Positions 1,870 to 49,700 of a stretch of 64,000 nucleotides of DNA are shown piece by piece. The DNA is from Candidatus Staskawiczbacteria bacterium (GTDB lineage: Bacteria; Patescibacteriota; Minisyncoccia; Minisyncoccales; Staskawiczbacteraceae). The notes under the pieces are model-generated. The model saw only the letters and a program-made list of their open reading frames with translations, was not told the origin of the DNA and did no database searches. Both the position numbers and the translations under genes were made by a program. The stretch spans positions 65,299-129,298 of the forward strand of contig JAPLYZ010000012.1 in NCBI GenBank assembly GCA_026395295.1, written 5' to 3'. Numbering within the stretch: position 1 is the first letter of the stretch; every line of letters begins with the position of its first letter.

Positions 1870-1900
1870 TGAATAAAAACTATTGGTAATTGTAAGGTTT

Positions 1901-3208
1901 ATGTTTATAAAAAAAATAAAATTTGAAAAGCATCCATTGATTGGAGACAGCAAATCTTTTGTTTTTTCCGTGCCTCATAGAAACAACATCGGTAGCGGGA
2001 TTAATTATATTGTTGGCAAATCAGGGTCTGGGAAAACAAAATTTTTGGAAATGTTTTTCCTTATGCCTATCGACCCAACGAAGCCCGGAAATCCAAGAAT
2101 TGATGATAATCAATACAGTATTAAATTGTTTGATGAGTCTTGTACGGAAATAACATCAAACCCTATAGCACAAGAACCTGCACCAGTCAGAAGGTTTAAA
2201 TTGAAGTATAGTTTCATAGACGGCAGAAAAGAGCCAAAAAAACATTATATGTTTAGTTCGGAAGAGACGTTGTCCAGGGATATAAGCGGCCGACAAACAA
2301 AGAGGAAGGAGTCTGTTGATAGATTTAAAAATAAATATGAAAAAGATAGCCGAAACTCCGGAAAAGGCGAGGCAAGATTTGACTCGATCATGTCAGAGAT
2401 AGGAAGCGTTAGAGAGGACACGGGCGTTGTTATCGTGGAAGAGCCAGAAGCATTTTTGGATCCAATTAATCAGAAAATTTTGTTAAAACGTATCTCTGAA
2501 GTAGCGAAGGAAAAACAGGTTTTTATTACTACCCACTCTCCATACATGGTGGATTGGTCTTATCTATGTAATGGAGCTTCAATTTTTAAGGTTAATAGAC
2601 CACCAGAATCTAGTGAGTCTATTGTTGGTGCATTTTGTAATGCTATGGTCGCGGAACAGATTAATAATCCAATGAAAAGACAGCCACACTTGAAAGGCGT
2701 AGAAACGAAAGATATTTTTTTTGCCGATAAAGTTTTTATCGTGGAGGGACAAGAGGATGTTGGGTTAATTTCAAGATATCTTGCGGATAATAATATGGAT
2801 TACGACTTTGTATTCTTTGGTTATGGCGCCGGTGGTGCCGACAAAATTAAAAATGTTTTAAAATTATGCTCTGATTTAAAAATTCTCAAGGTTGCCGCAC
2901 TTTTCGACAAGGAATCAAAAGATGCGGATAGGGTATTGAGATACACGTTTTGTTTTGAAAAGTATGCCCCAGCGTTTCAGATAGAGGAGTTGGTAGCAGA
3001 GGATATTAGAGATAAGTTCAGAGAAGATGAAAAAGGTAAATTAGAGAGGTATAAGGAAGGCGCTTTTACTGAAGACGGCGATTTGAAGCAAGGTAAGTTG
3101 GGAGATGATTTCAAAACAAAGATTAAAAATATATTAGATTATTTTAAAGGCGATATAAATGATTCTATTAGGGATAATTCAATGTCGGAGAATGAGTCTG
3201 CAGTTTAG
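1901..3208 (+). CDS. OLD-family-like ABC-ATPase fused to a Toprim-type nuclease domain (defence candidate)
   Basis: Walker A GKSGSGKT, Walker B-like VVIVEEPEAFLDP, H-loop FITTHSP, then Toprim-like VFIVEGQEDVGL and AALFDKESKD; first ATG (1901) inside track ORF 1883..3208. Confidence 0.6.
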   Translation: MFIKKIKFEKHPLIGDSKSFVFSVPHRNNIGSGINYIVGKSGSGKTKFLEMFFLMPIDPTKPGNPRIDDNQYSIKLFDESCTEITSNPIAQEPAPVRRFKLKYSFIDGRKEPKKHYMFSSEETLSRDISGRQTKRKESVDRFKNKYEKDSRNSGKGEARFDSIMSEIGSVREDTGVVIVEEPEAFLDPINQKILLKRISEVAKEKQVFITTHSPYMVDWSYLCNGASIFKVNRPPESSESIVGAFCNAMVAEQINNPMKRQPHLKGVETKDIFFADKVFIVEGQEDVGLISRYLADNNMDYDFVFFGYGAGGADKIKNVLKLCSDLKILKVAALFDKESKDADRVLRYTFCFEKYAPAFQIEELVAEDIRDKFREDEKGKLERYKEGAFTEDGDLKQGKLGDDFKTKIKNILDYFKGDINDSIRDNSMSENESAV

Positions 3209-3280
3209 AAGGTGGGATAATACACAAGGGAAGATGGCTTGGTTTTATTATTTGGTTCGCTAATATTTTTAATTTGAGGC

Positions 3281-3309
3281 TTGAAACAGTTCATTTTTAG
3301 GAATAGAAT
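3281..3309 (+). promoter_or_regulatory. Sigma70-type promoter of the MTase-fragment/nuclease/vsr operon
   Basis: TTGAAA (3281-3286), 17-nt spacer, TAGAAT (3304-3309), 10 nt before ATG 3319. Confidence 0.5.
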
Positions 3310-3318
3310 AAAGTAAAA

Positions 3319-3663
3319 ATGGAGAACATGTCAGTATCTAATAAAATAAAATTCGTTGATTTTTGCGCAGGCATTGGCGCTGGACGTCTTGGTCTGGAGA
3401 ATTTAGGCATGGAATGCCGAGGCTTTTCCGAAATCGATAAATTTTCTGAATATACCTACAGAAGGTTTTTCGGAAACGAGGAGAAAAATTTCGGTAATTT
3501 GATGAAGATAAATTCAAAAGACTTGCCGGATTTTGATTTACTGATCGCAGGGTTTCCATGTCAGACTTTTTCTGTTGTCGGCAAAAGGAGAGGAATGGAA
3601 GATAAGAGAGGTCAAATAATCTATGGTTTGATTAAGATTATGAAAGAAAAAAATCTAATATGA
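3319..3663 (+). pseudogene. DNA (cytosine-5) methyltransferase, N-terminal fragment only (motifs I-IV/V)
   Basis: Motif I DFCAGIGAG and motif IV GFPCQTFS present. ORF stops at ...IKIMKEKNLI* just before where ENV (motif VI) should be. 114 aa versus 300-450 aa for full enzymes. Confidence 0.7.
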
Positions 3664-4412
3664 AAAAACTTACATTAAGAGAAAAATCAATACTGGCTGG
3701 ATTATATTTGTCAAAATTTGATACCGAAGGGCTAAAATTTTTAGGATTTGATAACTTTACAGAAGCATTTAATGTCATTGGTCTGGCATTGGGAGTTCAA
3801 CCAGCATCGGTAAAAAATTATAGAGACGAGTTTGACCCTTTATTCCCGAATGAAAGGCAGGGTTGGCACAAAAGAGAAATTAGAAAATATTGCAAAGATA
3901 TTTACGATACTTTTCACACTTTAAATTTATCTAATTTTTCAACGTTGCTTAAGGATATTATTTATAGAGACCACGATTTAGATGTTTTAATGGAGGAAAT
4001 TGAAAAAAGTGAGGGTGAGAAGGTTAGTTCGTTCGCAAAACGACTTATTACGGGACAAGCGGCAGAGCAATATTTCAAGGACAACTTTTTAAGCGTTGAC
4101 TTGTTTAGAGGATATAATTTTGAAGACACAACAAAAATTGGATGTGGCTTTGATTTCAAATTAGTGACGGAGGAAAAAGAAAGATATTTTGGCGTTGAAG
4201 TAAAGGGACTTAACGAAGTGAGTGGCAATATTGCTTTAACCAATAAGGAGCACACCGTCGCCGATTTTTTGAAAGAACGATATTTTATATTTGTAGTAAA
4301 AAACTTTAAGGAAAAACCATTTCATCAAATTTATCAAGACCCGATAAAGAATTTGGATTTTAACAGGATTGAAAATAAAATAACTCAAATAAGTTGGAAT
4401 ACAGCCGTTTAA
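3660..4412 (+). CDS. PD-(D/E)xK nuclease-fold protein (DUF3883-like C-terminal domain), putative restriction-type endonuclease
   Basis: C-terminal core GCGFDFKL...FGVEVKG...LTNKEH fits a D...(E/D)xK nuclease motif; ATG overlaps the stop of the MTase fragment (ATATGA). Confidence 0.5.
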   Translation: MKKLTLREKSILAGLYLSKFDTEGLKFLGFDNFTEAFNVIGLALGVQPASVKNYRDEFDPLFPNERQGWHKREIRKYCKDIYDTFHTLNLSNFSTLLKDIIYRDHDLDVLMEEIEKSEGEKVSSFAKRLITGQAAEQYFKDNFLSVDLFRGYNFEDTTKIGCGFDFKLVTEEKERYFGVEVKGLNEVSGNIALTNKEHTVADFLKERYFIFVVKNFKEKPFHQIYQDPIKNLDFNRIENKITQISWNTAV

Positions 4413-4414
4413 TT

Positions 4415-4621
4415 ATGGAAATTTTTACAAAAAATAAAAAATATTCTTTTAACGATATCGCAGAAATTTGCGATAAAAATGGGCTAACTACGGTAGATTG
4501 TTTAAAAGATGAAAATATGATTAGCGTTGAAGGGTATGAAAATGGTGAGCTTTCTGGCAATTGTATTTCTGAATTTCATCAAATAAAAGAAGATGTTTTT
4601 AAATTAACTTGGCAGGAATAA
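4415..4621 (+). CDS. Hypothetical small protein (possibly 5' part of a frameshifted gene)
   Basis: ATG 2 nt after the upstream stop; its 3' end overlaps the next ORF, which is in another frame. Confidence 0.3.
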   Translation: MEIFTKNKKYSFNDIAEICDKNGLTTVDCLKDENMISVEGYENGELSGNCISEFHQIKEDVFKLTWQE

Positions 4622-4869
4622 AGGTGAGAGGAGAATTTTCGGCAGATTGGGTTTTAGTAATTTTGAAAATCGACGGCAAAAGCACATGGACTTTGAAATC
4701 GATTAACGAAGCAATGAACATTTTTGGTTCGGGAGCCGTTAGGATAACTTCTCAAGGAAGTTTAAAGATTGGAAAAATAGGAATGCAAAGGAAGGGCGGA
4801 GATGGCGGCAGGGAAACCGCGAAAATGTTGCAGTTTAAAATAAATCCGGTAGAACTTTTCGAGGTTTAA
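4609..4869 (+). CDS. Hypothetical protein; possible remnant of an m5C-MTase C-terminal region
   Basis: ORF with uncertain start (TTG 4609, GTG 4624 or ATG 4717). GGRETAKMLQF is reminiscent of m5C-MTase motif IX (RExARLQgF), but no motif X follows. Confidence 0.3.
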   Translation: MAGIKVRGEFSADWVLVILKIDGKSTWTLKSINEAMNIFGSGAVRITSQGSLKIGKIGMQRKGGDGGRETAKMLQFKINPVELFEV

Positions 4870-4871
4870 TT

Positions 4872-5279
4872 ATGACGGATATTTTTTCTAAAAAGAAGAG
4901 AAGCGAAATCATGCGGGCGGTGAAAAGCAAAGATACAAAAATCGAAGTCGCATTTAGGAGGGCACTTTGGAAAAGCGGATTTAGATATAGAAAAAATTCC
5001 TCAAAATATTTTGGAAAACCAGATGTAGTTTTGGAAAAATATAAAATTGTGATTTTTATCGATTCTTGTTTTTGGCACGGTTGTAAAAATCATTGCAGGA
5101 TGCCGATAACGAATAGAAAATACTGGTTGAACAAAATCAAACGGAACAAGGATAGAGACAAGGAGGTGAATAAGTATTATAAAAAGTTAGGTTGGAAACT
5201 TATCAGAATTTGGGAACATAAAGTTAAAAATAGTTTACCGAAAGCCCTAAATAAAATACAAAAATTAATCGATGAATAA
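4872..5279 (+). CDS. vsr: Very-short-patch repair endonuclease Vsr
   Basis: RSEIMRAVKSKDT, KPDVVL, IFIDSCFWHGC, YW.NKI.RN..RD, IRIWEH match the Vsr consensus; 135 aa. Confidence 0.85.
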   Translation: MTDIFSKKKRSEIMRAVKSKDTKIEVAFRRALWKSGFRYRKNSSKYFGKPDVVLEKYKIVIFIDSCFWHGCKNHCRMPITNRKYWLNKIKRNKDRDKEVNKYYKKLGWKLIRIWEHKVKNSLPKALNKIQKLIDE

Positions 5280-6132
5280 AAATATGGAAAATTTAATTGT
5301 AGCGAATTGGAAAATGAATCCAACTTCGCAAAAAGAAGCTAAAAATATTTTTGATGCAATAAGAGACGGCGTCCGGGGAGCTAAGGCAGAAGTTGTTATA
5401 TGTCCTCCGTCTGTTTATTTATATGCTTCTGTATTCGGAGAGGGCGTAGTCTCGATGGGGGCGCAGAATGTATATTTTGAGGATAAGGGAGCCTTTACAG
5501 GAGAAATATCCGTGGCCATGTTGAAAGATTTGGGGGTTGAGTATGTGATAATTGGACATTCAGAAAGGCGGAAATATTTTGGCGAGACAGACGAAATTGT
5601 AAACAAAAAAATAAAGAAAGCGCTGGAAGCAGGGTTGAAGGTTATATTTTGCGTCGGTGAAACAGCAGAAGAAAGAGACGCCGGAAACCCGACAAAAGCC
5701 CAGAAGGGCATTTTGACGGGCCCGTCACAATTCCCGCAGAGCGGGATTTGGTCGGGAAAGTACAAAGTGTTGGAGAACCAAATAAAAACCGGGTTATCTG
5801 GAATTTCAAATTTCAAATTGGACCCTACGGGGAGCCATGGCAATCAAATTTCAAATTTGTCGGTGGCTTATGAGCCTGTTTGGGCAATTGGAACCGGAAA
5901 CAATTGCGGAGTCGCCGAAACAAAAGAGTCAATCGATTTTATCAGAGGTATTGTTGGCGGTACCACTGACGGGTCCGTGGTACCAGAAAAGTTTAGAGTG
6001 CTTTATGGTGGAAGTGTGAAAAGCGAGAATTCCGGCGCTTATGTGAAAGACGCAGGAGCAAATGGTTTGTTGGTTGGGGGAGCATCTTTGAATGCCGAAG
6101 AATTTGTGAAAATAGTAAAATCTGCTGAATAG
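5272..6132 (+). CDS. tpiA: Triosephosphate isomerase (with two in-frame insertions)
   Basis: NWKMN, IIGHSERR, VAYEPVWAIGTG, LYGGSV, LLVGGASL. It is 286 aa versus ~250; the excess of 38 aa equals the 23-aa plus 15-aa insertions. Confidence 0.85.
   Translation: MNKNMENLIVANWKMNPTSQKEAKNIFDAIRDGVRGAKAEVVICPPSVYLYASVFGEGVVSMGAQNVYFEDKGAFTGEISVAMLKDLGVEYVIIGHSERRKYFGETDEIVNKKIKKALEAGLKVIFCVGETAEERDAGNPTKAQKGILTGPSQFPQSGIWSGKYKVLENQIKTGLSGISNFKLDPTGSHGNQISNLSVAYEPVWAIGTGNNCGVAETKESIDFIRGIVGGTTDGSVVPEKFRVLYGGSVKSENSGAYVKDAGANGLLVGGASLNAEEFVKIVKSAE
5688..5756 (+). repeat. 69-nt GC-rich palindromic insertion, in frame inside tpiA
   Basis: Termini CCCGAC/GTCGGG are reverse complements; internal 14-bp palindrome TGACGGGCCCGTCA (5714-5727) and hairpin CCCGC-aga-GCGGG; flanked by GGAAA/GGGAAA; length is 23 codons. 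Confidence 0.5.
5803..5858 (+). repeat. 11-bp direct repeats bounding a 45-nt in-frame insertion in tpiA
   Basis: ATTTCAAATTT at 5803-5813 and 5848-5858, exactly 45 nt (15 codons) apart; encodes ISNFKLDPTGSHGNQ|ISNL just before the conserved AYEPVWAIGTG. Confidence 0.55.
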
Positions 6133-6178: not shown

Positions 6179-6715
6179 ATGACCGAAGATAGTATTATAA
6201 GTAATGGAAAATTTTTCAGCCCCAGCAAGGGTGATTTAAGCTTTGACCAAGTTATCAAAGAAATTTTTAGTTATATGCAGGAAGCTCCGGAATTGGTTTA
6301 TGAAATTGTGGTTGGGTGCGATTCGCCATCTTCTGACAAGCCATTTTTTCCAATTGCCATAGTTGTTTTACGAACCGGGTTTGGCGGAAGGTTTTTTTTG
6401 AAAAAAATGCATTACGATGACAATTTTTTAAAAAGATTTGTTAATTGGAAAAACAGAATTTTGCAGGAAGTTTATTTGTCTTGCGAATTGGCGCTTTCAC
6501 TGAGGGAAGTGTTGGAAAAAGAAAATACCATTCGACAAGCTCAGGGCAAGAGCTTGAAATATCAGTTTGAATATATACACGCCGATGTGGGCGAGCGGGG
6601 CAAAACAAAAGAAATGGTTAAGGAAGTTGTTGGACTAATCAAAAGCAATGGTTTTGAGCCAAAAATTAAACCCTACTCTTTTGCCGCAACTGTGGTTGCA
6701 GACAGATATACATAG
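6179..6715 (+). CDS. DUF458/YkuK-like (RNase H-like fold) protein
   Basis: EIVVGCDS...FFPIAIVVLR pattern recalled from the YkuK/DUF458 family; assignment by recollection only. Confidence 0.4.
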   Translation: MTEDSIISNGKFFSPSKGDLSFDQVIKEIFSYMQEAPELVYEIVVGCDSPSSDKPFFPIAIVVLRTGFGGRFFLKKMHYDDNFLKRFVNWKNRILQEVYLSCELALSLREVLEKENTIRQAQGKSLKYQFEYIHADVGERGKTKEMVKEVVGLIKSNGFEPKIKPYSFAATVVADRYT

Positions 6716-6752
6716 TATTGTAAAGGGTAACCAGTAATGGATAAAATATGAC

Positions 6753-6773
6753 GCCACCTCCGGGTGGCTTTTT
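6753..6773 (+). terminator. Rho-independent terminator
   Basis: GCCACC-tccg-GGTGGC followed by TTTTT. Confidence 0.7.
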
Positions 6774-6785
6774 GCTAGCAAATCA

Positions 6786-6813
6786 TTGACAAAACATATA
6801 AAACTGGTAGACT
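6786..6813 (+). promoter_or_regulatory. Candidate promoter driving the high-GC block
   Basis: TTGACA (6786-6791), 16-nt spacer ending TGG, TAGACT (6808-6813). Confidence 0.35.
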
Positions 6814-6917
6814 TAGAAACAATTCGCACTTTCACAATTCTAACAGAATAAACTAATTCTTACCTGGCGGTAGGAAGCTGAAAGAACAAAAGCGCGATAG
6901 GAAGAAAGAGACAAGTT

Positions 6918-8537
6918 ATGCCGAAAAAAGTATTGATAGTAATTCCCAACGATTTTCGTGGACCTCCGCGGGAACGTTTCAAAAAGGCCCAATGGCAGGA
7001 CGCTCGGGACTTCGCCGGCAAGGTGGAGTCGCTCGGGTACCAAGCCGTGGTGTTGGAAGAAGATCTCATCGAGCCCAGGGCTACGTATGAGTCTGTCAGC
7101 TCGGCCATTGAAACCCACAAGCCTGTGGCGGTTGTGTCGCGCAGCTACCTTTGGGCAGACCCGCCCATTGGTCACGCAATTCAGCTCGCCACCCCGTCAG
7201 ACGTTTTCCTGGGCAATTCTGCCTATACTGCTCCGGTTGGCGCCAAATTGGGTGAAGCGCCGGGCGAAGTATTCATGTTGCACGACACCTGTGTCGCGCG
7301 CATGACCGGCAGACACCAAGAACGCCTGATTGGTCCGCTGTCGGGCAATGGCGAAGAGCAACTCATGAGTGACCTGACCGAATTCCTGAGTAATGGCAGG
7401 ATTACCTCCAACGTGGACTTTCCCAACTTCAAACTGCCAATCCAGCGGAGCCACACGGCCATGGCTCGGACAATTCTCGCCGGGATGCGTGGTAATGTTA
7501 TGGCAACCACCGGCGGTCACTGCATGGGAATGTTGCCCTGCCACATTAATGTGCCGTATCACTGCGGCCAGAACGGCTGGGGAATGAACATCCCCATAAT
7601 CTCGCCCGACCTCTTTGACTGGAACAAGAGATTCGAGGCAAAGCGAGACCACTACATGATGTTGGGCTTTGCCTATGTGCAATGGCTCATTGCCAAGGGC
7701 GTCAAGTTCCTGTTCCAAAACGACTGGGACGGCAATTCTCTGCCGGCCGATGAACAAGACTACGACCTTGGTGTGGCAGCCAAGCAGATGGGATTTTACG
7801 CCGCAATGCTGGACATTGCGGCCGAGCGGAAAATCAAGATTCTGGGCATTCCTGCCCAGCTTATTATGACCGAGGGCCTGTTTTGCGGCGACCTTATCAA
7901 AGGCGTTGCCATGTCCTCAGAAGGTCCGGAAGGTCGCAAACATCCGCTTTTCTGGATGACCGAGGGCGACATGGACGGCGGGATTTCCCACTTTGTTTTG
8001 AACGCTGTCACCAAGGAAGCCCCGATCTTCTGCGACGTCCGCTGCCCGATTACCGAGTTGGGTCAAGGCGTGTGGATGATGTGCAACTTCGGTGCCGCGG
8101 GAATGGATGGAGCAGGTGGTTGGGATAAGTGCTATTCTGTTCGGCAATACAAAGGCTACTTTGGCGCCGGCGGAGGCACCTTCTCGTTCCTCAACCCGAA
8201 GAAGTCTTATGTGGTTGGTTTGCGCACGGGCGTTGACCAGCAAGGCATTTTTGGCACTGTTGCCATTGGCGAGACCGTGCAGTCTACCGACTACAATCAC
8301 GTTGTGGACGGCAGGTGGCCTCAATATAAGGTCCATCTCTTCGCCCAAGGTGGCAATCGGGAGATCTACCGGAAGATGGTAACAAATCACAAACACTTCG
8401 CGGCCTCTGCCACTCCGTTGGGCGACGCCTGTATTCTCGCCGAGACCGTCAGGCTTGCCGCGGGTGGAAAGCCTGATGACCCGACCGACAAGGCCGACCG
8501 CGTCAGCATTATCTACGACGGTCGCCCGACGAGTTAA
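6918..8537 (+). CDS. L-fucose/L-arabinose isomerase-family protein (sugar isomerase-like)
   Basis: 539 aa. The C-terminal half is patterned like FucI (FCDVR, NFGAAGMDG, YFGAGGGTFSF, RWPQ, TNHKHF). ~58-60% GC versus ~37% in the flanks. Confidence 0.5.
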   Translation: MPKKVLIVIPNDFRGPPRERFKKAQWQDARDFAGKVESLGYQAVVLEEDLIEPRATYESVSSAIETHKPVAVVSRSYLWADPPIGHAIQLATPSDVFLGNSAYTAPVGAKLGEAPGEVFMLHDTCVARMTGRHQERLIGPLSGNGEEQLMSDLTEFLSNGRITSNVDFPNFKLPIQRSHTAMARTILAGMRGNVMATTGGHCMGMLPCHINVPYHCGQNGWGMNIPIISPDLFDWNKRFEAKRDHYMMLGFAYVQWLIAKGVKFLFQNDWDGNSLPADEQDYDLGVAAKQMGFYAAMLDIAAERKIKILGIPAQLIMTEGLFCGDLIKGVAMSSEGPEGRKHPLFWMTEGDMDGGISHFVLNAVTKEAPIFCDVRCPITELGQGVWMMCNFGAAGMDGAGGWDKCYSVRQYKGYFGAGGGTFSFLNPKKSYVVGLRTGVDQQGIFGTVAIGETVQSTDYNHVVDGRWPQYKVHLFAQGGNREIYRKMVTNHKHFAASATPLGDACILAETVRLAAGGKPDDPTDKADRVSIIYDGRPTS

Positions 8538-8860
8538 GTCGGCATTACTGGTGAATTATATGTTTGCATGTCCCTTGCAGCGAAAGTTGCTCGGGACTTT
8601 TTATTGTGCGACCATATACAGATGTCGGGCTTCTGTAAAGTGCAAAACACGGATACTTTTAATTCTGCGGTCGCAGAATTCAGCGTATCTGACGCGTAAG
8701 GAGCATACACAGACTAAGTGAATACAAGGCAGGGCTTGATGTTTTTTTGCATATGTGATAAAATAATAATGCTCTTTTACAATTTACAGTATTAACCACA
8801 ACATCCGCCCGATAGGTCGGAGACTGACAAAATGAAAAGAACTCAATACGGAAAAGGACT

Positions 8861-9907
8861 ATGAAGACGACAATGAAACTGCTTTGGACCATTATTTTTA
8901 CGGTCACAGTGGCAATCAGCAACAGCGCCCAGGCTCAGTCGGAGCCTAAAACCCTGGAGCAGAAACTCGATAGCATTTTGACTATCTGGCCATCGGGGTG
9001 TCCGCTGACTCAGGAGAAACTGGACACTATGTTGGGTTATCCTGAGGCGGGTCACAAAAAGAAACCCGCAACATCCTCCATGTCTCTGATGAACGCCGCT
9101 CCGCCTCCGACACCGGGTGATCCCCCGAATACGACAAATTCAGAGTCGGTATTGCCGGAATTGGTGTCGTTGGAGAATAGTCTCTCCCCGTATGTTTTTT
9201 ACGGGTTCCCGGACTTTAGTTCGGGAAGTTGGCTGACCATCACTTTGCCCAACACCTATTTCCCGTGGCACCTCAACTCTTCTTACAAAGTGAACACAAA
9301 CGGTGTTCCCTCTGCCCAGAGTTATGCCCTGTCGGTGCAATACTCCAGATCGACCATCTATATCACGATGCTTTTGAACGATACCAATAAGTACGGGAAC
9401 AACGTTCCCTATTGGGTCAACTTTTGGAGTTACAATAGTATGACTTCGTCAGACCAGTCGACGTTCAGCGTCAATGACATAATCAAATTACAGCTGCCAT
9501 ACACGGAATCCGGCTGGACGCGTCATTCATATTACCTGCCAGCAACCAGGGATATAACGAACAAGTTTTCGTGGACAATCCAGAAGTACTACTCTGGCAC
9601 CTATTTTACCCCATATATGGGGTTGGATGCGGTGCAACTTGTTCCTGTTCTCCCCGCAGGCAACGACCCGGATTTCAATATATCCCTGTCCGGGACAAAC
9701 GTGGTCGTCAAATGGTTGCAAAATCTGTTTCCGCCAAGCCAATGGAAACTTGCAGTGGCGACGAATGTCGTGGGACCATATTTGGTTGACACCAACTTGG
9801 TTCCAACAACGCTTGTCGTCACGAATAGTTTGGGTTCCAACTATTTTTCTGCAGTCACTTTGCCGGCGGTAGGTCCGCAGAAGTTCTTTCGGCTCGATAA
9901 GCCATAA
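8861..9907 (+). CDS. Secreted protein of unknown function
   Basis: Signal peptide KLLWTIIFTVTVAISNSAQA; ~50% GC; ends ...QKFFRLDKP. Confidence 0.6.
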   Translation: MKTTMKLLWTIIFTVTVAISNSAQAQSEPKTLEQKLDSILTIWPSGCPLTQEKLDTMLGYPEAGHKKKPATSSMSLMNAAPPPTPGDPPNTTNSESVLPELVSLENSLSPYVFYGFPDFSSGSWLTITLPNTYFPWHLNSSYKVNTNGVPSAQSYALSVQYSRSTIYITMLLNDTNKYGNNVPYWVNFWSYNSMTSSDQSTFSVNDIIKLQLPYTESGWTRHSYYLPATRDITNKFSWTIQKYYSGTYFTPYMGLDAVQLVPVLPAGNDPDFNISLSGTNVVVKWLQNLFPPSQWKLAVATNVVGPYLVDTNLVPTTLVVTNSLGSNYFSAVTLPAVGPQKFFRLDKP

Positions 9908-9931
9908 TCGGCTGTAGTGGTTACCATCATA

Positions 9932-9959
9932 CCCTCTCGAAAGAGCGGGCCCTTTTTTT
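9932..9959 (+). terminator. Probable terminator at the right edge of the high-GC block
   Basis: CCCTCT-cgaa-AGAG(c)GGG stem followed by CCTTTTTTT. Confidence 0.45.
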
Positions 9960-9968
9960 ACTTGCACT

Positions 9969-9996
9969 TTGAACAAATTTATTTTTGTAGTATAAT
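9969..9996 (+). promoter_or_regulatory. alaS promoter
   Basis: TTGAAC (9969-9974), 16-nt spacer, TATAAT (9991-9996), 10 nt before ATG 10007. Confidence 0.55.
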
Positions 9997-10006
9997 AATA
10001 AAATAC

Positions 10007-11746
10007 ATGAAATCATCTGAACTGCGTCAGAAGTTTTTGGAATTTTTTAAGAGCAGGGGACACGCGATAATTCCCAGCGCTTCTTTGATTCCGGAAAACG
10101 ACCCGACTGTTTTATTTACAACCGCAGGAATGCATCCGTTAGTTCCTTATTTGCTTGGAGAAAAACATCCTGAAGGGAAAAGATTGACCAGCTGTCAAAA
10201 ATGTATACGAACCGGAGATATTGATGACGTGGGTGATGACACTCACTTAACATTTTTTGAAATGCTGGGAAATTGGTCGCTAGGAGATTACTGGAAAGAA
10301 GATGCAATAAAATTTAGTTTTGAATTTTTGACAAAGGAACTGAAGTTGCCTTTGGAAAGATTGGCCGTGTCTTGCTTCGCAGGTGACAAAGACGCGCCAA
10401 AAGATGAAGAGTCGGCAAAAATTTGGGAATCGCTTGGGGTGAAAAAAGAAAGAATTGCATTCTTGCCAAAAGAAGATAATTGGTGGGGTCCGGCAGGAAA
10501 AACCGGTCCTTGCGGGCCGGACACAGAAATGTTTTATTGGAAATTAAACGACAAACCGACTCCAAAAATTTTTGACTCGAAAAATAAAAATTGGGTGGAA
10601 ATTTGGAACGATGTTTTTATGCAATACGTGAGGGATGAGAATGGAAACTATAATCCGGCAAAGCAAAAAAATGTTGACACTGGAATGGGCTTGGAAAGGA
10701 CGTTGGCTGTTATCAACGGCGCTGAAAATATTTATCATACCGATATGTTTGATGTCGCACATAAGAAATTACACGAGCTTTTAAAAAAAGAAAATCCTGC
10801 AAGTGAGAGAATAATTTTAGACCATATTAGGGCGGCAACATTTCTTTTGGCCGAGCATATTGAGCCATCGAATCTTGAGAGAGGTTACGTTTTGAGGAGA
10901 CTAATTCGCAGGGCAGTAAGACACGGAAAGCAAATTGGCATTGAGGGGCAGTTTTGCTCTAAAATTGCCAAAGCTGTAATAGAGATTATTGGTAATATTT
11001 ATCCTGAGATACAAAAAAATGAGAAATTTATTTTTGGACAATTAGACAAAGAAGAAAAAAAATTTGAAGGGACTTTGGAAAATGGATTAAGGGAATTTGA
11101 GAAGTTAGGAAAAATTTCTGGGAAAGATGCGTTTAATTTGTACCAGAGCTATGGTTTTCCAATTGAAATTACTTTAGAGTTGGCGAAAGAAAAAGGGGTT
11201 AATGTTAATTTGGCAGACTTTAAAAAAGAATTGGAAAAACATCAGGAGTTGTCGAGGACGGCAAGCGCAGGAATGTTTAAAGGGGGATTGGCCGATAATT
11301 CCGAGGAAACTACAAAGTTACATACAGCCGCGCACTTAATGCTGGCTGGTTTGAGGAAAGTTTTGGGAGAAGATGTTTTTCAAAAAGGAAGCAACATTAC
11401 AGCCGAAAGATTAAGGTTTGACTTTTCGCACAAAGAAAAAATGACCGGTGGACAAATAAAAGATGTGGAAAATTTTGTAAATGGTATAATAGAGAAAGAC
11501 CTCCCTGTGGCTTGCGAAGAGATGACAATAGAGAAAGCCAGAGAACTAAATGCCATGGGCGTTTTTGAGTCAAAGTATGGCCAAATTGTAAAAGTTTATA
11601 CTGTAGGAACAGGTGATAATGTGGCGAGCAGGGAAATATGCGGAGGGCCTCATGTGCAAAGAACAGGAATTTTAGGACACTTTAAAATACAGAAAGAGGA
11701 GAGTTCATCCGCCGGAGTGCGGAGAATTAAAGCTGTGTTAGAATAA
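10007..11746 (+). CDS. alaS: Alanine--tRNA ligase, short form (no C-Ala domain)
   Basis: FFKSRGH, FTTAGMHP, editing-domain HTAAHLMLAGL and CGGPHV. The internal ATG 10007 sits behind the promoter; track ORF start 9917 would read through the terminator and promoter. Confidence 0.85.
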   Translation: MKSSELRQKFLEFFKSRGHAIIPSASLIPENDPTVLFTTAGMHPLVPYLLGEKHPEGKRLTSCQKCIRTGDIDDVGDDTHLTFFEMLGNWSLGDYWKEDAIKFSFEFLTKELKLPLERLAVSCFAGDKDAPKDEESAKIWESLGVKKERIAFLPKEDNWWGPAGKTGPCGPDTEMFYWKLNDKPTPKIFDSKNKNWVEIWNDVFMQYVRDENGNYNPAKQKNVDTGMGLERTLAVINGAENIYHTDMFDVAHKKLHELLKKENPASERIILDHIRAATFLLAEHIEPSNLERGYVLRRLIRRAVRHGKQIGIEGQFCSKIAKAVIEIIGNIYPEIQKNEKFIFGQLDKEEKKFEGTLENGLREFEKLGKISGKDAFNLYQSYGFPIEITLELAKEKGVNVNLADFKKELEKHQELSRTASAGMFKGGLADNSEETTKLHTAAHLMLAGLRKVLGEDVFQKGSNITAERLRFDFSHKEKMTGGQIKDVENFVNGIIEKDLPVACEEMTIEKARELNAMGVFESKYGQIVKVYTVGTGDNVASREICGGPHVQRTGILGHFKIQKEESSSAGVRRIKAVLE

Positions 11747-40757: not shown

Positions 40758-43700
40758 ATGTCATTATTTGATGATTATAAGAACAATCAAGGACTGGCGG
40801 TACCAGTTGAAACACCAACTCTGGTGGCAAAAACAGAGAACCCGTTTCAAAAAGCGTGGGATTTTGTAACTCAAAAAAAATTAGCACAGATTCCCGCACC
40901 AAAATCAACAGGGACTCTCTTTGACCAGTATCAAGCAGAAAAGAATGCTGTACCGATTGAAACTACACCCGGTAAGACGCCAATGTTGCAGGATTATTTC
41001 AATGCCAACAATATTGAACAAGTTGGCTGGGTTGATTTGGAGAGTAAGGGATTGATGACTCCGGACTTAGAAAAGTTAAAGAAGGCCGGATTTGCTCCTC
41101 CAGTTTCGGAAACTCCTGTAACCAAACCAACACCAGCACCTGTTTATAAAGGATTGACAACTGATCAGTCGCAGAAATTAAACGAAAATATAGACCTTGC
41201 AAAAAACCCTCCAAAAATAGACACTAGTCTTAAAATATCTGCTCCGGCAATAGGTGAGTGGGTTGATACTCCGTCTATGAGCTGGACACCGGAAGAAACA
41301 AAAAAAGCATTGGATAAAGCCTTTGTGCATCCCGACACGGGAAGTCCACGAGACCTGCAAATGAGACAGATAGCTTACGACACGATGAAGGCAAAGATAG
41401 ACCCTGTTTCTTCTTTATTTTTTGATAATTTTCTCCCGACAAAGGTTATTTTTGCATTAGACAGAGACGGAGCTTTGGTAAATGAAGCAAGGCAGAAAAT
41501 TAACGATGAGTTTTCAAACGCCCATCCTTTCCTTTCTATATTGCCGGTGGCAGTTGCTCAACTCGCCAACCTTGCTCTTATAGGAAAGTCAGGCGGGGGA
41601 TTTGGTTTGGCCGAAAAAACAACTGCAACAGCAGGCAGACTATCAAACTGGATGCCGAATGTAGTGAGGATGATCGGTTTGGGAGCTGAAAGCGGTAGCA
41701 TTTTTGGTATTGTATCAGGTATTTCAGAGGCATTAAATCAAGCCGAACAACAGAATTTTCAACCGAAGAAATTATTAACCGAAACATTAAAGGGAGTTGG
41801 CACAGGTTCAACATTGGGAATTGCCGGAGGTGCGCCTCAACTATGGCAGAGAGTTTTGGGAAGCGGTGGAACATTGGTTTCTTTGTCGGCTTTGCAAGGA
41901 TATATGCAGGACGGAAAAATAGATGCCAAAGACATTGCCAACATTACCATAAACGGCATATTGGGAGCAGGTTTTGAATTGATTGGAGGCAGGGCAAAAA
42001 CAAATATATTCTCAACAAAAGAACAAATAAGATTAGGGAGAGATGTAACCACAGCAAAGTTAATGGAAAACCCTGCCGGAACGGCACCCAAGACGTGGAC
42101 AGAGGCACAAGGCGAGTTGGTGGCGCTGGAACAGTTGCCAAAAATGATTTACGACTTGGGCCGGGAGGAAACGATTAAAGGAATGATTGCAAAGCACCCT
42201 GATATGACAGTTCAGCAAGCCAACAAAATGTATGACGATATAACCGCTCTGCCGCGCGCATTGGCTACCGGATACGGAGCAAAGATGGCTCCTTATTACC
42301 AGCAAATTCCAAAGGACTTTTACGGTGCAGACGTTCAAATCCAAAAAGATTATTTCACTACAGTAAGAAAGGGAGTAATGGAAGATGGTTTGACAATCCC
42401 TCAATCCATTGATGTTGCTAACCAAACTTTTACTCCCAAGATATTTTATTCACATCCGGAAGCGACAACGCCGGTGGACATTCACGCTGAAAATCAGGCA
42501 ACACAGGCAGAGGCAAATAAAATGTTGCAGGCAAAAACCGGCACTCCAATAGAGTTGACGGGTTGGAATACAAGCGTGGGAGGCAAAGACAGCGGGTTTC
42601 GAAGTCCGGACAGGTATGAATCGCAGGCATACTCGGCCAGCAAGATGCAGTTTTCCAACAAGGGAGAAGTCAATGTAAATAAAACAACGGACAAACTTAA
42701 CAATCCTTATGTCGCAAACGACCAGACAGAGGTTTTAAAGTTTTTGGGAAACACTGATTTGGTTAAGAGAACGGCAGAGGAACTTAAAAACACCAGTTCA
42801 CTTTCTCCAAATAAACCAATCGTTGTGGAAGCCGACAATTATATCCGCACTGAATTATTAAAACAAGGTTATGACGGAGTAATTTATAAAAACAACGGGA
42901 GACGACCGGAGTATCAGGTTTTCAATGTTAAAAAGCAGTTGGGTGTGGGAGAAACCAAAGCATTGATTGCTTCCGGAGACCAACAGGCAATTTCAGACGA
43001 GGTAAATAAGAGACTGGAAGATTTCAGACAGAAAGCTGATTTAATGGCAAGCAATGAGGGAGCCGGAGTGAGGCAATATAGTTCAGACCAGTCAGTTGGA
43101 GAAACCAAGATTTATAATTACTTCAAACTCGACCGGGCAAAGTCGGATATGTTTAAGCAGGCCAAGCAGTTGAAACAATACGCCCACGAATTGCTTTATG
43201 AGAATGATCCGTTGTATAAAGAATTATACGACAAAAAGGTATCATTGGAAGAAAGCAATTTGAACGCCGCAACAGACGAAATAGACGTTCAAAAGATGTT
43301 CGAGGACATCAGCAAAGAGGAAAAAATATTAACCAATAATTTAAACAAATATGAAACTTCCAAAGACACACCAACTTTTGCTCCGTCTGAGGGCGTTAAA
43401 GCAAAAGGCACTGGACAAACTCAACCAGCTCAAGAAAAACAAACCCCAACCAGTGAAGTAAAGTCACAGGTTCAGAAACCACAAGAGGGACAGAAGCTTC
43501 CAACCAGTGAAGTTATTACACCGGAAGCATTGTCGGCCATTGAAAGCAAGGTTACCGGTATTGTTGAAGAAATAAAAAAGGGCAGACCGACACCGGCCGA
43601 GATGTTAGAAAAAACTCCCAGCGATTACTCCGAAATATGGAGTAATGGTTTTGATTATTACAGAGAAAACATCTCAACTCCGGCAGAGAATGAAATAAAA

Positions 43701-46700
43701 ACAGCGAAGAAAGAGTTGGCAACATTGAAAGGAAACAGAACCCCCGAAGTTAAAACAAGGAAAGCAGAGTTAGAAGCAATTATAAGCAAATTGGAAAAGG
43801 CGAAAAACGATGGAGAGAACAGGATGATAGAAGAAACGCAAAAATATAGTTTAGATTTGGCTGACCTTGCAGTTAAACAGGCTCAAGCTCAAGGACTTGA
43901 TTTGGGAGAATACAATAAGGAAAGTGATGTTTCAGAATGGAACTCATTTAAGGACGATTTTATAACTCAAATATCTGAAAGACCTTACATTGAAAGCAAC
44001 TGGAATGACAAAATTTCAACGATTTTGGACGGAATAATTGCTGATTTTAAAGAACAATTTAAAGGTAGAGTATTAACTCCAACTCCCATTGAAGAGTCGG
44101 CAACAGATATTATAAACTCTTTGTTTGGTGAAGAGCCAGCAAAGCCCGTTTCTCCCTCTATAAATAAGGCAAAACAAGCCACCAGTGAGGCGAATATAGA
44201 GGAGTTGGTAAATACATCAACTCCCGTAGAAATCCCTGTTTTTGAGGAGTCTGGCGCGGTTTATCAAAAGAACGAAAAGAACATTAAAACCGCCAAAGAA
44301 GCGGCAACTGATTTAATCAGAGGATATGTGGAAAGGGGAGATACAATGCAAAGTTTGTCGGAGGGACAAATGGGAAAATACGGAAGCGATTATCAGGCAT
44401 CAGTTGGCGGTTATTTGAATGGCAAGAATGTTGGCAATAAAAAAATAATTGTATTTTCAGTCAACGGAAAGGAGGTTAACGAAACATTTTCATTGAAAAC
44501 AATCTTTGACGAAATAAAGAAAGGCCAACCTGCTCAAAAGAAAACTCAACCTACTCAAGAATTATTCTCCGGATTAAAAACAATTCCAAAAGACACAGTT
44601 TTATTTCACGGAACATCGGGAGAAAATGCAAAGAATATAAAACAGGACGGAGTTTATCAGACTGACGATGTTTATGCTTCTTATGGCAGAGGATTTTATT
44701 TAACAGACGACAAAGCAGTCGCGCAGGATTATGCAGACGAATTGGATAATGGGCAAGTGCTTGAATTTTCAGCAAAGAAAGATTTAAAACTTTTAACTCC
44801 GACAAAAACAGAAAGAGAAGACATCGTTGACCTTACCGGAGAATCGCAGGATGAAATGATACAGCAGTTGTTGGGAGATAATTATGACGGATTTTATCTT
44901 CCGGATATTGGAATTGGCGACGGCTCGCCGCAAGTTGTTTTATATAATAAAACCGGCTTGAATTTTGAACGCAACGACATCAATGATTTGATTTCTTTGA
45001 CACAAAATCTTGATAACGGTATAATTAAATCGTATGGACAACCAAACGAACAATCAAATGACGTTCTTGGGAGTTCACCTGTCGCAGGAACACTTCCCGA
45101 AGCTTTACCAGTGGGCGAAAGACAACCCAGCGACACTGGCGGAGCAGTTGCAGAGCATAGCGGACAAGTGGCACAACGGGGATTGCGTGTCGGCGGCGCA
45201 AGCGCTCGAATCGGATCTCAAGTAAGCAAGACAGAGCAGTTTGCAATAAATAATCAAATTGAAAGTTTAGTTGCAGAAAAGGGCGACAATCCTGACGCTT
45301 ACAGCGAAGAACAAAAAAATCTACTCTCCCAATATTCCGGTTCAGGAGGGCTTGAAGAAGCCGGGGCCAACAACAGAGGTTTATTGGATGAATACTTTAC
45401 CCCACAGAAAGTTGTATCTTTTATTTGGAGTAAATTAAAAGACAGGTTGCCAATTCTCGGCGACTATACAATAGTTGAACCTTCTGTTGGAACGGGAAAT
45501 TTCATTGATGAAGCTCCGGAGGGTACAAACATCGAAGCGTTTGAGATAAATAAAACATCGGCAACAATCGCAAAGGTTCTATATCCCAATGCCGGTGTAG
45601 AGAACGCACCATTTGAAAGTTTATTTATTGACGACAGGGGAAATAAAAAGACGGTCAAGCCGTTTGCTCGTTTGGTTATAGGAAATCCGCCATACGGAGA
45701 ACACAGAGGCATTTATAAAGGGCTTGGCGAAGAACCGCGCATTAATCGCTACGAAGATTATTTTATAAAGCGTGGTTTGGATATTACGCAGGACAAAGGA
45801 TTTGCGGCAATGGTTGTGCCATCGGGATTTTTAAGGACAGCCAGCGATTATGCAAAAAATGAAATTGCAAAACTCGGATATTTGGACTCTGCTTACAGGT
45901 TGCCGAATAATGTTTTTGACAACACCGATATTGGAACGGACATTGTAATTTTACGCAAAGAAGCAGTAACGCCCGAATTTGCATACTCTCTCGCCAACAG
46001 AACACAAACACTTTCAGACGACAATTATTTTAAAGAACATCCCGAAAACATCTTGGGTGTAGAGAAAGAAAGAAAAGGCAGGTTTGGAATGGAGAAATAT
46101 GTGGAGGGGAGCCTTGACTTCACTCCGGCAGAGGAAACCCAGCTCAAAAACGTCGCAAAGAGCAATTCTCCGCAGGGTTCTCTGTTCGATCAGAAAGAAA
46201 TTGTTAAAGAAATTGAAAATGAAATAGACAAGGGAGCAATCAGCAATGAAAAAGAGTTTGTAAAGAATTGGAGCAAGGACGTAAATAAACTGGAATTGTC
46301 GACCCAACCGAAAGTAAATAAGGGAGGCATAACAATTTCTTCTCCAAAGAAAAGCGAAACGCGTTTGGATTTATCAGAATACTATTCTGATATGTCGGAC
46401 GCAGAATTAAGAACCTACACGGAAATAAAACCAACAGGAGAGGGCAACGAAGCGTTGCTCAATGGGGAATTAAGCCCGGAAGATGTAATCAATTACCTCA
46501 ACCTTGAAAATGGCAAATGGTTTAACAACCTTAATTATTTCACTGGCGATATTTATGAGCGATTAGACCAACTCGAAGTAAATAAATCCAAGATGTCGCA
46601 AGGTCAGTATAAAAAGCAGTATGACGGATTGATTAAAGTCCTGCCGGAAAAATACAATGTTGACAGAATAAACATTTCTCCGAACACTCCTTTTGCGGAT

Positions 46701-49700
46701 ATGACTTTAAAGTATGACGGGAAAGATCAGACATTAAAACAATCATTCAAAAACTTTCTATCAACGCTCCCGCGCGATACTTTTGCCGACACTTCGAGAT
46801 ATGAGATTAACGAATATGTGGACGAGCAGTCAGTCAGAGGAAATGACAAGGTCAGAAACCAGACCGTCAGAGTTCAGAGAAGAGAAATTGGCAATCGATT
46901 ATTCTCAAGATTTTTAAGGGAGGCATTAACTCCGGAACAAACAAAGGCAGTTGAGGACAGGTACAACAGGTCTTTCAATAGTTATGTCAGACCGGATTAT
47001 AGGCAGGTTCCGCTTTTGGGAAAAATACACGGAACATTCAAAGGAAATCCTTTGACGATTAAAGACTACCAGTTGCAGGGTATTGGATTTTTGGTGAACA
47101 AAGGATTGGGTTTGATAGCTCACGATGTAGGACTGGGAAAAACAATGCAGTCTATAATTGCCATAAACGAAATGTTAAAACGCGGTTGGGCCAAGAAACC
47201 TTTGATTGTTGTTCCGTCCGGCAATGTTTATACCCAATGGATTAAAGAGGTGCAAGAAATTATACCCGGCATTGAAATCAATGGATTAACCAATTTGGGA
47301 GGCGCATTTGCCGGCGACCTTTCAACACTGGAAATCAAACCCGGCACAATTTCTATAATCACTTACGAGGGATTTAAGAAACTGGGATTTAAACAGGAAA
47401 CCTATAACGACCTTACCTCTGAATTACAAGACACAATAGAAGCTCCCACAGGCCTTACAACCGCACGAGCGAAACAAGCCGAGCAAGCTAAGGTGCAAGA
47501 GACCATAGGCAAAGGAATCAAGGGAACACTCGGGGCAAAGACCTTTGAGGATTTGGGCTTTGACTTAATGATGATTGACGAGGTGCAGAACGCAAACCAT
47601 ATCATTAAGGGAGCCAAGTTGCAGGAAGCCGGCAAAGCCAGTGAGTTCAGGGGTTTGAATATCAGACCGTCAGAATTGGGAATTAAAGCGTGGCTTGCTT
47701 CGCAATATATTTTGAAAAATAACAACAACAGAAATGTCTTTTTGGCATCGGCAACTCCTTTCACAAATAATCCAATGGAGTATTATTCGGTTTTATCTTT
47801 GTTGGCCCGGGAGAGAATGAAGAAGTCCGGATTAAAGAACGTCAACGAGTTTATGAATACCTTTATGGACATCTCGTTTGATTTTGAAATTACAGCGGAC
47901 GGGAAATACAAAGAGAGAAATAATATAAAGGGATTTAAAAATTATCAGCAATTCCAAAAAATACTCACAGAGTTTATTGATTTTAGGGACGGAGAGGAGG
48001 TTGGCATACAGAGACCGAACAGATTGTCTTTGCAGACAACCTTGAAAGCAACCAAAAACCAAGTGGACTTAATGACTTCCGCGCAGGAATTGTTTAACGA
48101 CAAGAATAAAAACAAAGGCGGGGCATTGAAAGGCGTGGGAGAAATGAGAGCGATTACATTCAGCCCTTATGCCTCTTCGTATTATAAAGGTGCTCGCCCA
48201 ACATACGAGAGTTTTGTAAATAACAGCCCAAAGGTTAAAGCCGTTGTAGAAATGGTGATACAGAACCATTCCGACAACAAAGACGCGAACCAAGTCATTT
48301 ATTCTCCAATCGGCGTGGAATATCTGCCGATGATTAAAGATTACCTTGTTCAGAAAGGCGGTTTTAAGGCAGACCAAGTCGGTATTATAACCGGATCGGT
48401 TAAGGGAGACGAAAGAGTGGTTATCCAAGACCGATTTAACGAGGGCAAGGTAAAGGTTCTTATAGGCTCTGATGCAATTCAGGAGGGAGTTAATCTGCAA
48501 CGCAAGTCCACTGATTTATATATTATGGCATTGCCGTGGAACTTCACTGAATTAAAGCAGGTAACGGGCAGGATTTGGAGGCAGGGCAACGAATGGAAAA
48601 ATATCAGGGTTCACAATGTCTTTATAGAAAACAGCGTTGACGTTTTCCAGTCGCAGAAATTGGAAACGAAACAGAACCGCTACGAAAACTCCTTGAAATT
48701 CAAAGGGGATTATCTTGATGTAGGAGACATCGACTTTGACGAATTGAAAATGGATTTAATCAGCAGTCCGGTAATGAGAGTTGCCATAGAAAAATCTATG
48801 GAACAGAGGACAAGAGAAAGAACATTAAACGAGGCAAAATCCAATTTGGGATTTTATTCGAGAAAAGCCGACAAACTTTTAAACGCTCAAGAGGATTTGG
48901 ACAGTGCAAGACAAAATGTCGTTCAATATACAGAATGGGCAAAAGGAGAAAAAGACGAATACTGGTCAAAGAGAATTGCAGAGGCCGAATCCGCCTATGC
49001 CAAAAAACAAAAAGACTACGAAGCCGTTAAAAAAGATGTTGAGGATAAAGGACTGATTGATTTAAACCAGCTCAAGAGTTTAGAAAATAATGTCGCAAAC
49101 GGACAGAAGAGTTTGGACGCATTAAATAAAGATTTCAAAACCAAAGAAGATGCGGCAGTCAAGCAGGAAACAGCAAGGGTTCAGGAAATTACAACCACCG
49201 GTAATGATTATAAACAGATTAGGGGTAATTTGGCAGAGCAAAATAAAACATTCTTTATAAAGAACGAAGCCCCGGCCAATGTTAAGAGAAGTCCGGCTGG
49301 TTTGGCTTCTGCCGGTGGCAGTAAAATAGGGAACTTCGAGCAGATAACTTCTCCGGACGAGGCAGACAAATTGAAAATCTATGACGAGGTTAAGGCGTTG
49401 ATTCAAAAATACGCTCAATCTATCGGTGAAAGTTATCTTCCGCGTGGAGCCGCAGGCGTGTTATACCAGTCAGGCAACATCAGAGTAACGGGAATGAATG
49501 CTTTGTCTGTGGCAACCCACGAAATAACACACTTTTTAGATAAGGCGTTTAAGATTTCAGATCAGATTATGGGAGTTCAGGGAGTGAGCAGAAGCGGCAG
49601 ACCGGTGTATGAAAAGACCACAGCAAAATTAAGAAAGGAAATGACGGATTTATACAATAAGTATTATCCGACAGCCAAAAAATCTCACAAATTAAGCAAG

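Follow-up and report, generated by a model that had tools for sequence, protein, structure and literature searches.

We analyzed a 64,000-nt stretch of DNA from a metagenome-assembled genome of Candidatus Staskawiczbacteria (the whole stretch is called the window here, and all coordinates refer to it). The host is a small-genome groundwater bacterium of the Candidate Phyla Radiation (CPR/Patescibacteria). In the window, the genes adk and map are followed by genes for an OLD-like ATPase/TOPRIM protein, a NOV_C-domain protein and Vsr, and then by tpiA and a gene for an RNaseH-like protein. Beyond a GC-rich island of about 3 kb, which is the subject of this analysis, come alaS, a glxA-like gene, infA, the genes for ribosomal proteins S13, S11 and S4, and rpoA, with the L13 gene further downstream. 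This region makes up the distal end of the ribosomal-protein supercluster and lies within the conserved adk-map...infA-S13 cluster. The initial annotation of this DNA, made from the letters alone, had put the island within a ribosomal locus, and the adk-map...infA-S13-S11-S4-rpoA cluster that surrounds it bears this out. It had also described two open reading frames (ORFs) in the island, and we find them as described: one codes for a sugar isomerase-like protein of 539 amino acids (aa) and the other for a protein of 348 aa that ends in ...KFFRLDKP (Table 1). Each of the two proteins has been recorded once in the NCBI database, as the hypothetical proteins NT155_03505 and NT155_03510 of a Candidatus Staskawiczbacteria metagenome-assembled genome.

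Table 1. Coordinates of the island's features and of the native sequences that border it.
Feature	Position in window	Strand	Basis and properties
Left flank, native RNaseH-like gene (PF04308)	6179..6715	+	Pfam E=2e-37; 70-88% identical orthologs in 80 related contigs, each adjoining tpiA
Native intrinsic terminator of the RNaseH-like gene (predicted)	6753..6773	+	6-bp GC-rich hairpin at 6753-6768 plus T5; -13 kcal/mol, z -3.4
Cassette 1, promoter-like site TTGACA-16-TAGACT, left edge of the transferred unit	6786..6813	+	10/12 consensus matches, TG before the -10 hexamer
Cassette 1, leader of ~100 nt with AT-rich 5' end	6814..6917	+	59% identical to the L180 leader (L180 122-228)
Cassette 1, gene for a 539-aa divergent sugar isomerase of the FucI/AraA superfamily	6918..8537	+	GC 0.56, GC3 0.67; hhalign, Foldseek, conserved residues
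Cassette 1, intrinsic terminator	8570..8605	+	GUCCC..GCAGC-GAAA-GUUGC..GGGAC plus U5; -19.4 kcal/mol, z -3.9
Imperfect palindrome of 42 nt between the cassettes	8650..8691	.	Inverted repeat; -18.1 kcal/mol, z -5.2, no T-run
Cassette 2, promoter-like sites TTGATG-17-TAAAAT and GTGATA-17-TACAAT before the 348-aa gene	8736..8783	+	9/12 consensus matches; consensus-level only
Cassette 2, 348-aa ORFan, predicted secreted protein	8861..9907	+	GC 0.49, GC3 0.60; only a self-match
Cassette 2, weak terminator-like hairpin plus U7 after the 348-aa gene	9932..9959	+	-8.9 kcal/mol, z -1.85; imperfect; missed by consensus scan
Native alaS promoter region, right edge of the insertion (predicted)	9964..9999	+	TTGAAC-16-TATAAT, 10/12 consensus matches
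Right flank, native alaS, short 579-aa form	10007..11746	+	Pfam tRNA-synt_2c E=4e-135

The island stands out from its surroundings in base composition. In a sliding window, GC content is 0.30-0.45 in the flanks, rises to 0.51-0.59 over positions 6801-8600, stays at 0.47-0.505 over 8801-9800, and is back at ~0.40 in alaS. By feature, it is 0.56 in the 539-aa ORF (with a sliding-window peak of 0.59), 0.49 in the 348-aa ORF, and 0.40-0.43 in the spacer, compared to 0.39 in the window outside the island. The GC jump reported in the initial annotation is therefore confirmed, although its value of 58-60% for positions 6918-8537 was slightly high. GC content at third codon positions (GC3) is 0.67 in the isomerase gene and 0.60 in the 348-aa gene, which places them 5.3 and 4.1 standard deviations above the 46 other ORFs of the window (0.371 +/- 0.056, maximum 0.535). 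The first and second codon positions of the isomerase gene are also GC-rich (GC1 0.58 and GC2 0.43, versus about 0.45 and 0.35 in the host). At four-fold degenerate sites, base use differs from that of 17 host genes both in the isomerase gene (P=1e-27, chi-square) and in the 348-aa gene (P=6e-10), and the two genes also differ from each other (P=7e-4): the 348-aa gene favors G (0.36, with C at 0.26), and the isomerase gene favors C (0.43, with G at 0.26). Long antisense ORFs in the island had been dismissed as by-products of its composition. They are not longer than synonymous-codon shuffles yield (the observed lengths were reached by 0.93 and 0.74 of the shuffles), and overlapping antisense genes were rejected on this ground.

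Exact-protein look-ups yielded Logan contigs, 14 in number and independently assembled from more than 10 sequencing runs (ERR153021xx, SRR206986xx), that are 100% identical to the window without gaps. Six of them begin at window positions 5658, 5875, 5880, 6440, 6448 and 6554 and run to 8691, crossing from the RNaseH-like gene into the isomerase gene. The other eight begin at 8663 and run to positions from 10269 to 11491, crossing from the 348-aa gene into alaS. Because independent assemblies match the window across both of its outer junctions at 100% identity, we regard these junctions as real. The same contigs, together with the empty sites that we describe below in related bacteria, support the earlier view that the island is a real integration and not a chimeric join. 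All 14 contigs end or start at 8663-8691, between the two genes; the two sets of contigs overlap by 29 nt and co-occur in samples. A 43-aa ORF that runs across this inner join was looked up and is not on record. The place where the contigs break coincides with the palindrome at 8650-8691, the core of which is AATTCTGCG-GT-CGCAGAATT, and we treat the break as a branch in the assembly graph, due either to a palindrome artefact or to strain variation. The palindrome may function as an operator or be the scar of a recombination, or it may do no more than break assembly graphs.

We then compared the site of the island among related bacteria. A scan of JGI metagenomes with the RNaseH-like protein gave 80 loci (L100-L179) with 70-88% identity to it, which were searched by TBLASTN with the proteins of the window. 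The gene order tpiA, RNaseH-like, alaS, glxA-like, infA is conserved in these related contigs, 59 of which include both flanks of the island, and neither island protein had a match in any of the 80 loci, including the 59 with conserved flanks. Among the 59 loci, the spacing from the RNaseH-like gene to alaS varies between 14 and 2364 nt. About half of these gaps measure 14-210 nt, many of them only 14-120 nt, and consist of a terminator followed by the conserved alaS promoter, i.e. they are empty sites. The longer gaps contain cargo that is mutually unrelated: L104 has a PurD gene, L111 a reverse transcriptase and L106 a receiver domain, and ORFans are numerous. Of the 27 gaps that reach 450 nt, 19 exceed the rest of the contig by at least 0.05 in GC content. 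The nearest relatives of our genome, as judged by alaS (88-89% identity), have either empty sites of 68-104 nt or different cargo. The gap between the RNaseH-like gene and alaS is a hotspot in this lineage, at which accessory genes come and go. Because its flanks are conserved and the gap is empty or differently filled in relatives, we interpret the island as a lineage-specific gain at a site of fast turnover. A scan of GTDB genomes with alaS gave best matches that are only ~61% identical, which makes them unsuited to comparison of empty sites.

The borders of the island can be recognized in these relatives too. They have an equivalent terminator at the same place after the RNaseH-like gene, and orthologs of alaS up to 89% identical to the one in the window come after this gene. 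On the right, the stretch 9964-9999 is 88-92% identical, over 32-36 nt, to the sequence directly 5' of alaS in four of the loci (L140, L146, L148 and L149), and the architecture of the alaS promoter in the window is also seen in relatives with empty sites. There is no integrase or transposase among the ORFs between positions 6716 and 10006 (by the ORF list and Pfam), and no tRNA gene within the window. Only short direct repeats, at chance level, were found around the island. One of them, a 16-nt repeat (D5) at 6859 and 9858 with matches at 13 of 16 positions, was considered as an att site and rejected, because chance alone would give about 30 such pairs in 3.9 kb. Searches against Rfam gave no match on the island, on the whole window, or on 12 of the hotspot loci.

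The 539-aa protein has no match in Pfam or NCBIfam even at E<=10, including the Fucose_iso_N1/N2/C and AraA models. Its next-best homologs beyond its own family (E=1e-19 to 1e-3) carry the Pfam domains Fucose_iso_N1/N2/C, and a profile-profile alignment by hhalign to ten such Pfam-positive FucI-like proteins has a probability of 99.9% and E=3.9e-31, extending over residues 4-513. The family profile also matches the L-fucose and D-arabinose isomerases in PDB (E=2e-4). An AlphaFold2 (AF2) model of the protein has a mean predicted local distance difference test score (pLDDT) of 83.6 and a predicted template modeling score (pTM) of 0.89. In a Foldseek search with this model, the top matches are 3a9r, 1fui and 4c2x at E=1e-20 to 1e-22, with AraA at ~1e-13, and all 41 matches at E<=0.001 are chains of FucI, D-arabinose isomerase or AraA, with a probability of 1.00. 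The TM-scores are only 0.45-0.5, so the placement of domains differs. Three residues that are invariant in the family, E349 (in the motif TEGD), D373 (DVR) and H491 (TNH), align to E, D and H columns that are likewise invariant in the Pfam-positive FucI-like proteins, and to TEND and DVR in the FucI sequences in PDB. We take them to be the equivalents of Glu337, Asp361 and His528 of Escherichia coli FucI, which are catalytic and Mn2+-binding residues.

As modeled, the protein thus has the three-domain FucI fold, the same overall fold as in FucI/D-arabinose isomerase (PDB 1fui, 3a9r, 4c20-22, 6k1f) and AraA, and it has in common with FucI the full-length profile-profile match and the Glu-Asp-His positions. 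It differs in being only 14-18% identical to the solved FucI structures, in its length (E. coli FucI has 591 aa), and in having WPQ in place of the motif WPH that is near-invariant in short FucI-like proteins. The initial description of the gene as FucI-like therefore stands at the level of the superfamily, on profile-profile alignment, fold search and catalytic residues, but the absence of any Pfam or NCBIfam match marks the protein as belonging to a divergent subfamily. Judged by sequence and predicted structure, it is a divergent, Pfam-invisible branch of the FucI/AraA superfamily, and it is probably a metal-dependent aldose-ketose isomerase that turns an aldose into its ketose to feed fermentation. 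Two of its homologs have sugar genes as neighbors: AraA in contig L018, and a Gfo/Idh/MocA oxidoreductase in L016.

The isomerase family is very rare. It comprises ten clusters, at 90% identity, among 5.8 billion clusters, and when 1.84 billion were scanned exhaustively, only three representatives came out at E<1e-30; in all, the family numbers no more than about a dozen among 15 billion proteins. No relative with the invariant motifs of the family was found in 185,579 GTDB species representatives. Neither the 539-aa nor the 348-aa protein has a match in the viral contigs of IMG/VR, so there is no sign of carriage by phages. We recovered the genomic contexts of nine family members (the window, L015-L019, L180, L181 and L183), and the locus is different in every genome, with neighbors that include exonuclease VII, GuaA, RecG/FtsH, L1/NYN and S2/Tsf. 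In five of the nine, the gene is a GC-rich single-gene island, with a GC3 of 0.67 in the window (host 0.37), 0.68 in L015 (host about 0.30), 0.82 in L183 (host 0.30-0.49), 0.54 in L181 (host 0.27-0.43) and 0.73-0.88 in L017 (host about 0.63). In L016, L018, L019 and L180, whose hosts have GC contents of 0.46-0.52, it is near the composition of its neighbors. The proteins of the family are 50-76% identical to one another, and their genes are essentially saturated at four-fold sites.

The homolog in L017, a contig from the Rifle aquifer, has the highest GC3 in the family. It is called as two overlapping ORFs of 203 and 327 aa (positions 6917-8463 of that contig), which is either a frameshifted pseudogene or a sequencing error, and an intact version of 531 aa is present in the same 90% cluster (P0066).

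In three of the contexts there is a tRNA gene directly upstream of the isomerase homolog: tRNA-Ile (TAT) at 747-821 of L181, tRNA-Glu (TTC) at 9458-9530 of L016, and the 3' end of a tRNA at 1-26 of L180. This suggests that integration has been tRNA-proximal elsewhere. These three contexts resemble tRNA-adjacent integrative islands, in that a tRNA gene immediately precedes the isomerase gene, but unlike such islands, neither the window nor the short contigs with homologs show an integrase or an att-like direct repeat, and the window does not contain any tRNA.

The L180 homolog, whose protein product is 76% identical to ours, has unrelated flanks but similar regulatory sequences. The promoter-like site at 6786 is 75% identical to the one upstream of the L180 gene (TTGACA...TAAGCT), and a homologous hairpin, GUCCC...GGGAC plus a T-run, follows that gene. 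The leaders in the window and in L180 have the same outer stem (UCGCACUUU/AAAGCGCGA), which encloses an internal hairpin of differing sequence; the z-score of the fold is -0.7 in the window and -3.5 in L180, a comparison of two sequences only. The leader at 6814-6917 has no match in Rfam. Since a homolog from an unrelated context also has this promoter, leader and terminator, we conclude that they travel with the isomerase gene, and the transferred unit is about 6786-8605. This regulatory DNA is AT-rich, with a GC content of 0.28-0.46. The proposal that host-like AT-rich signals frame the island needs to be amended accordingly. The terminator at 6753-6773 and the site TTGACA-16-TAGACT at 6786 were both recovered in our scan, and the one at 9932-9959 is weak, but the promoter at 6786 is part of the cargo, being shared with L180.

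The second gene is an orphan. The N-terminus of the 348-aa protein, MKTTMKLLWTIIFTVTVAISNSAQAQ, resembles a Sec signal peptide by inspection, and is followed by a linker rich in Pro, Thr and Ser and by a remainder that is probably beta-rich. Searches with the full-length protein and with its mature part recovered only the protein itself among 5.8 billion clusters at E<=10, in a word-index search that is insensitive to remote homologs, and there was no match in Pfam, NCBIfam, PDB or IMG/VR. A single-sequence AF2 model has a pLDDT of 34.6 and is unusable. From its sequence, we predict that the orphan protein encoded by cassette 2 (about 8608-9959) is secreted or located at the surface. None of the eight other contexts of the isomerase gene has a neighbor resembling the 348-aa gene.

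Taken together, these results make it likely, in our judgment, that the 3-kb GC-rich stretch is genuine horizontally acquired DNA, consisting of two self-contained cassettes and situated at a hotspot that is bounded by the RNaseH-like gene's terminator on one side and the alaS promoter on the other. The foreign origin that had been claimed for both genes is upheld by their composition, by their absence from 59 syntenic relatives, and by their patchy distribution. The idea that they form one 3-kb block fares less well: the GC-rich stretch is real, but two stacked acquisitions are more likely because the genes differ in composition (P=7e-4 at four-fold sites), terminators and promoter-like sites are present separately for each of them, and the isomerase gene is not accompanied by a 348-aa-like gene elsewhere. 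In the scenario that we favor, the isomerase gene would have arrived from a GC-richer donor, too recently for amelioration, as suggested by its GC-rich codons. The AT-rich promoter and leader that it shares with another genome suggest that the last hops of cassette 1 were between similar genomes, and not straight from a distant phylum. Insertion would probably have occurred by recombination of taken-up DNA into the gap between terminator and promoter, which would be selectively neutral, and each cassette would be expressed from its own promoter.

Several points weigh against this scenario. We did not find a GC-rich genome that carries the isomerase family in any collection searched, and the GC-rich donor is deduced from composition only. 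The family is saturated at synonymous sites and yet GC-rich in several AT-rich hosts, which would also be explained if GC-richness is maintained. We describe the hosts of the homologs as CPR-like on the basis of gene content and composition only (they are mostly AT-rich contigs with compact arrays of housekeeping genes). The two-event history is based on the compositional difference and the separate signals, and no intermediate was observed; among the independent contigs we found none that spans the inner join at 8663-8691. Lastly, the promoters and terminators are consensus or fold predictions only.

One alternative is that high GC content is an intrinsic property of the isomerase gene, maintained by selection on mRNA or codons or by biased repair, and that the gene is resident in CPR-like genomes, among which the family hops or is lost. 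Family members that are only 50-76% identical and saturated at four-fold sites are nevertheless much GC-richer than their AT-rich hosts in five of nine cases, with the rest near their hosts, and this is what such maintenance would produce; so is the lack of any GC-rich donor genome with the family among 15 billion proteins, and the AT-richness of the regulatory DNA that moves with the gene. We nevertheless consider this explanation unlikely, because the gene matches the GC3 of its host where the host has a GC content of 0.46-0.50 (L016, L018 and L019), as ordinary amelioration predicts, and because it is absent from the 59 syntenic relatives. Moreover, the unrelated cargo at the hotspot is GC-richer too, which fits a general influx of environmental DNA of average GC content into very AT-rich genomes. 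A bolder proposal, which we think quite unlikely, is that the isomerase family occurs exclusively in ultra-small CPR-like bacteria as a self-contained cassette of promoter, structured leader, one gene and terminator, that its coding GC content is actively maintained in AT-rich genomes and does not go back to a GC-rich donor, and that its conserved leader of ~100 nt is an undescribed sugar-responsive cis-regulator.

The initial annotation had favored a cross-phylum origin, on the view that the island resembled DNA from Verrucomicrobia or Planctomycetes. In its strict form, this means that a single 3-kb block came straight from a donor of that type (a PVC-type donor) and was inserted between host signals. 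Both genes are indeed GC-richer than the host, and the C-terminus of the 348-aa protein, ...QKFFRLDKP (pattern F[FY]RL), is presumably of a kind found in secreted proteins of this group; we looked for homology to PVC proteins and found none in Pfam, in PDB or, by the word-index search that is insensitive to remote homologs, among the 5.8 billion clusters. We regard such an origin as very unlikely. Neither protein has a homolog in any named lineage, by the GTDB motif scan and among the 5.8 billion clusters, and the differences between the two genes at four-fold sites, their separate terminators and promoter-like sites, and the eight contexts in which the isomerase gene lacks a 348-aa-like neighbor all argue against a single block. 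The AT-rich promoter and leader, being common to a homolog in another genome, are cargo and not host signals. Even less probable is that both genes are ancestral and were lost from the relatives, with a composition that follows from amino acid content. The elevated GC1 and GC2 of the isomerase gene would agree with this, but the strongest outliers are GC3 and four-fold sites, which are independent of protein sequence, the closest relatives by alaS have short empty sites or other cargo, and the isomerase family is at a different locus in every genome. Finally, an assembly or binning chimera, in which GC-rich DNA of another organism was misjoined into a CPR contig, would account for the abrupt change of composition and for the break of every Logan contig inside the island, but has a negligible chance of being correct, given that six contigs cross the left junction and eight the right at 100% identity, that the inner break coincides with a 42-nt palindrome at which the two sets overlap by 29 nt in the same samples, and that each half of the island is anchored to a CPR flank.

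In aquifer Patescibacteria, both gene transfer and genomic islands have been documented, with most individual transfers occurring between Patescibacteria (Gios et al. 2025, PMC12455944), and the AT-rich promoter shared between genomes fits these reported Patescibacteria-to-Patescibacteria transfers. Like the published islands, ours is an accessory block of deviant composition that occurs in a streamlined CPR genome, is missing from relatives and carries metabolic and surface functions. It differs from them in being very small (two single-gene cassettes, 3.2 kb in total), in having no integrase, repeats or tRNA at the site, in its position inside the adk-map...infA-S13 cluster, and in cargo that is GC-richer than the core genome. 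The event is of an ordinary kind, and the general picture is unchanged by it, as gene transfer and islands in Patescibacteria were already documented. What it provides is a clean, assembly-verified gene gain in a streamlined CPR genome for which the empty site is visible in relatives. It also identifies the gap between terminator and promoter in the adk-map...infA-S13 cluster as a recurrent landing pad for unrelated cargo, and the movement of a rare isomerase branch in the form of one gene that brings along its promoter and terminator hints at unrecognized sugar use in these symbionts.

Elsewhere in the window, the region between map and tpiA (1883-5279), which codes for the OLD-like ATPase/TOPRIM protein, the NOV_C-domain protein and the Vsr mismatch endonuclease, is a defence-like accessory block that breaks up the adk-map...infA ribosomal cluster. 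The adjacent tpiA gene (5272-6132) codes for a triose-phosphate isomerase of 286 aa with a Pfam TIM match in two stretches. The same query span takes up only ~235-255 codons in relatives, so the copy in the window has an insert of ~30-45 aa, which is located in a locally GC-richer stretch (0.45-0.46 at 5401-6000). A second compositional outlier is a gene related to AIR synthase (PF00586/PF02769) at 62262-63170, with a GC content of 0.51 and a GC3 of 0.53. Of the 46 ORFs scored outside the island, it departs furthest from typical synonymous codon use, and it may be another acquired gene. A single ORF of 3903 aa occupies positions 40758-52469, and probably encodes one of the giant surface proteins that are common in CPR genomes.

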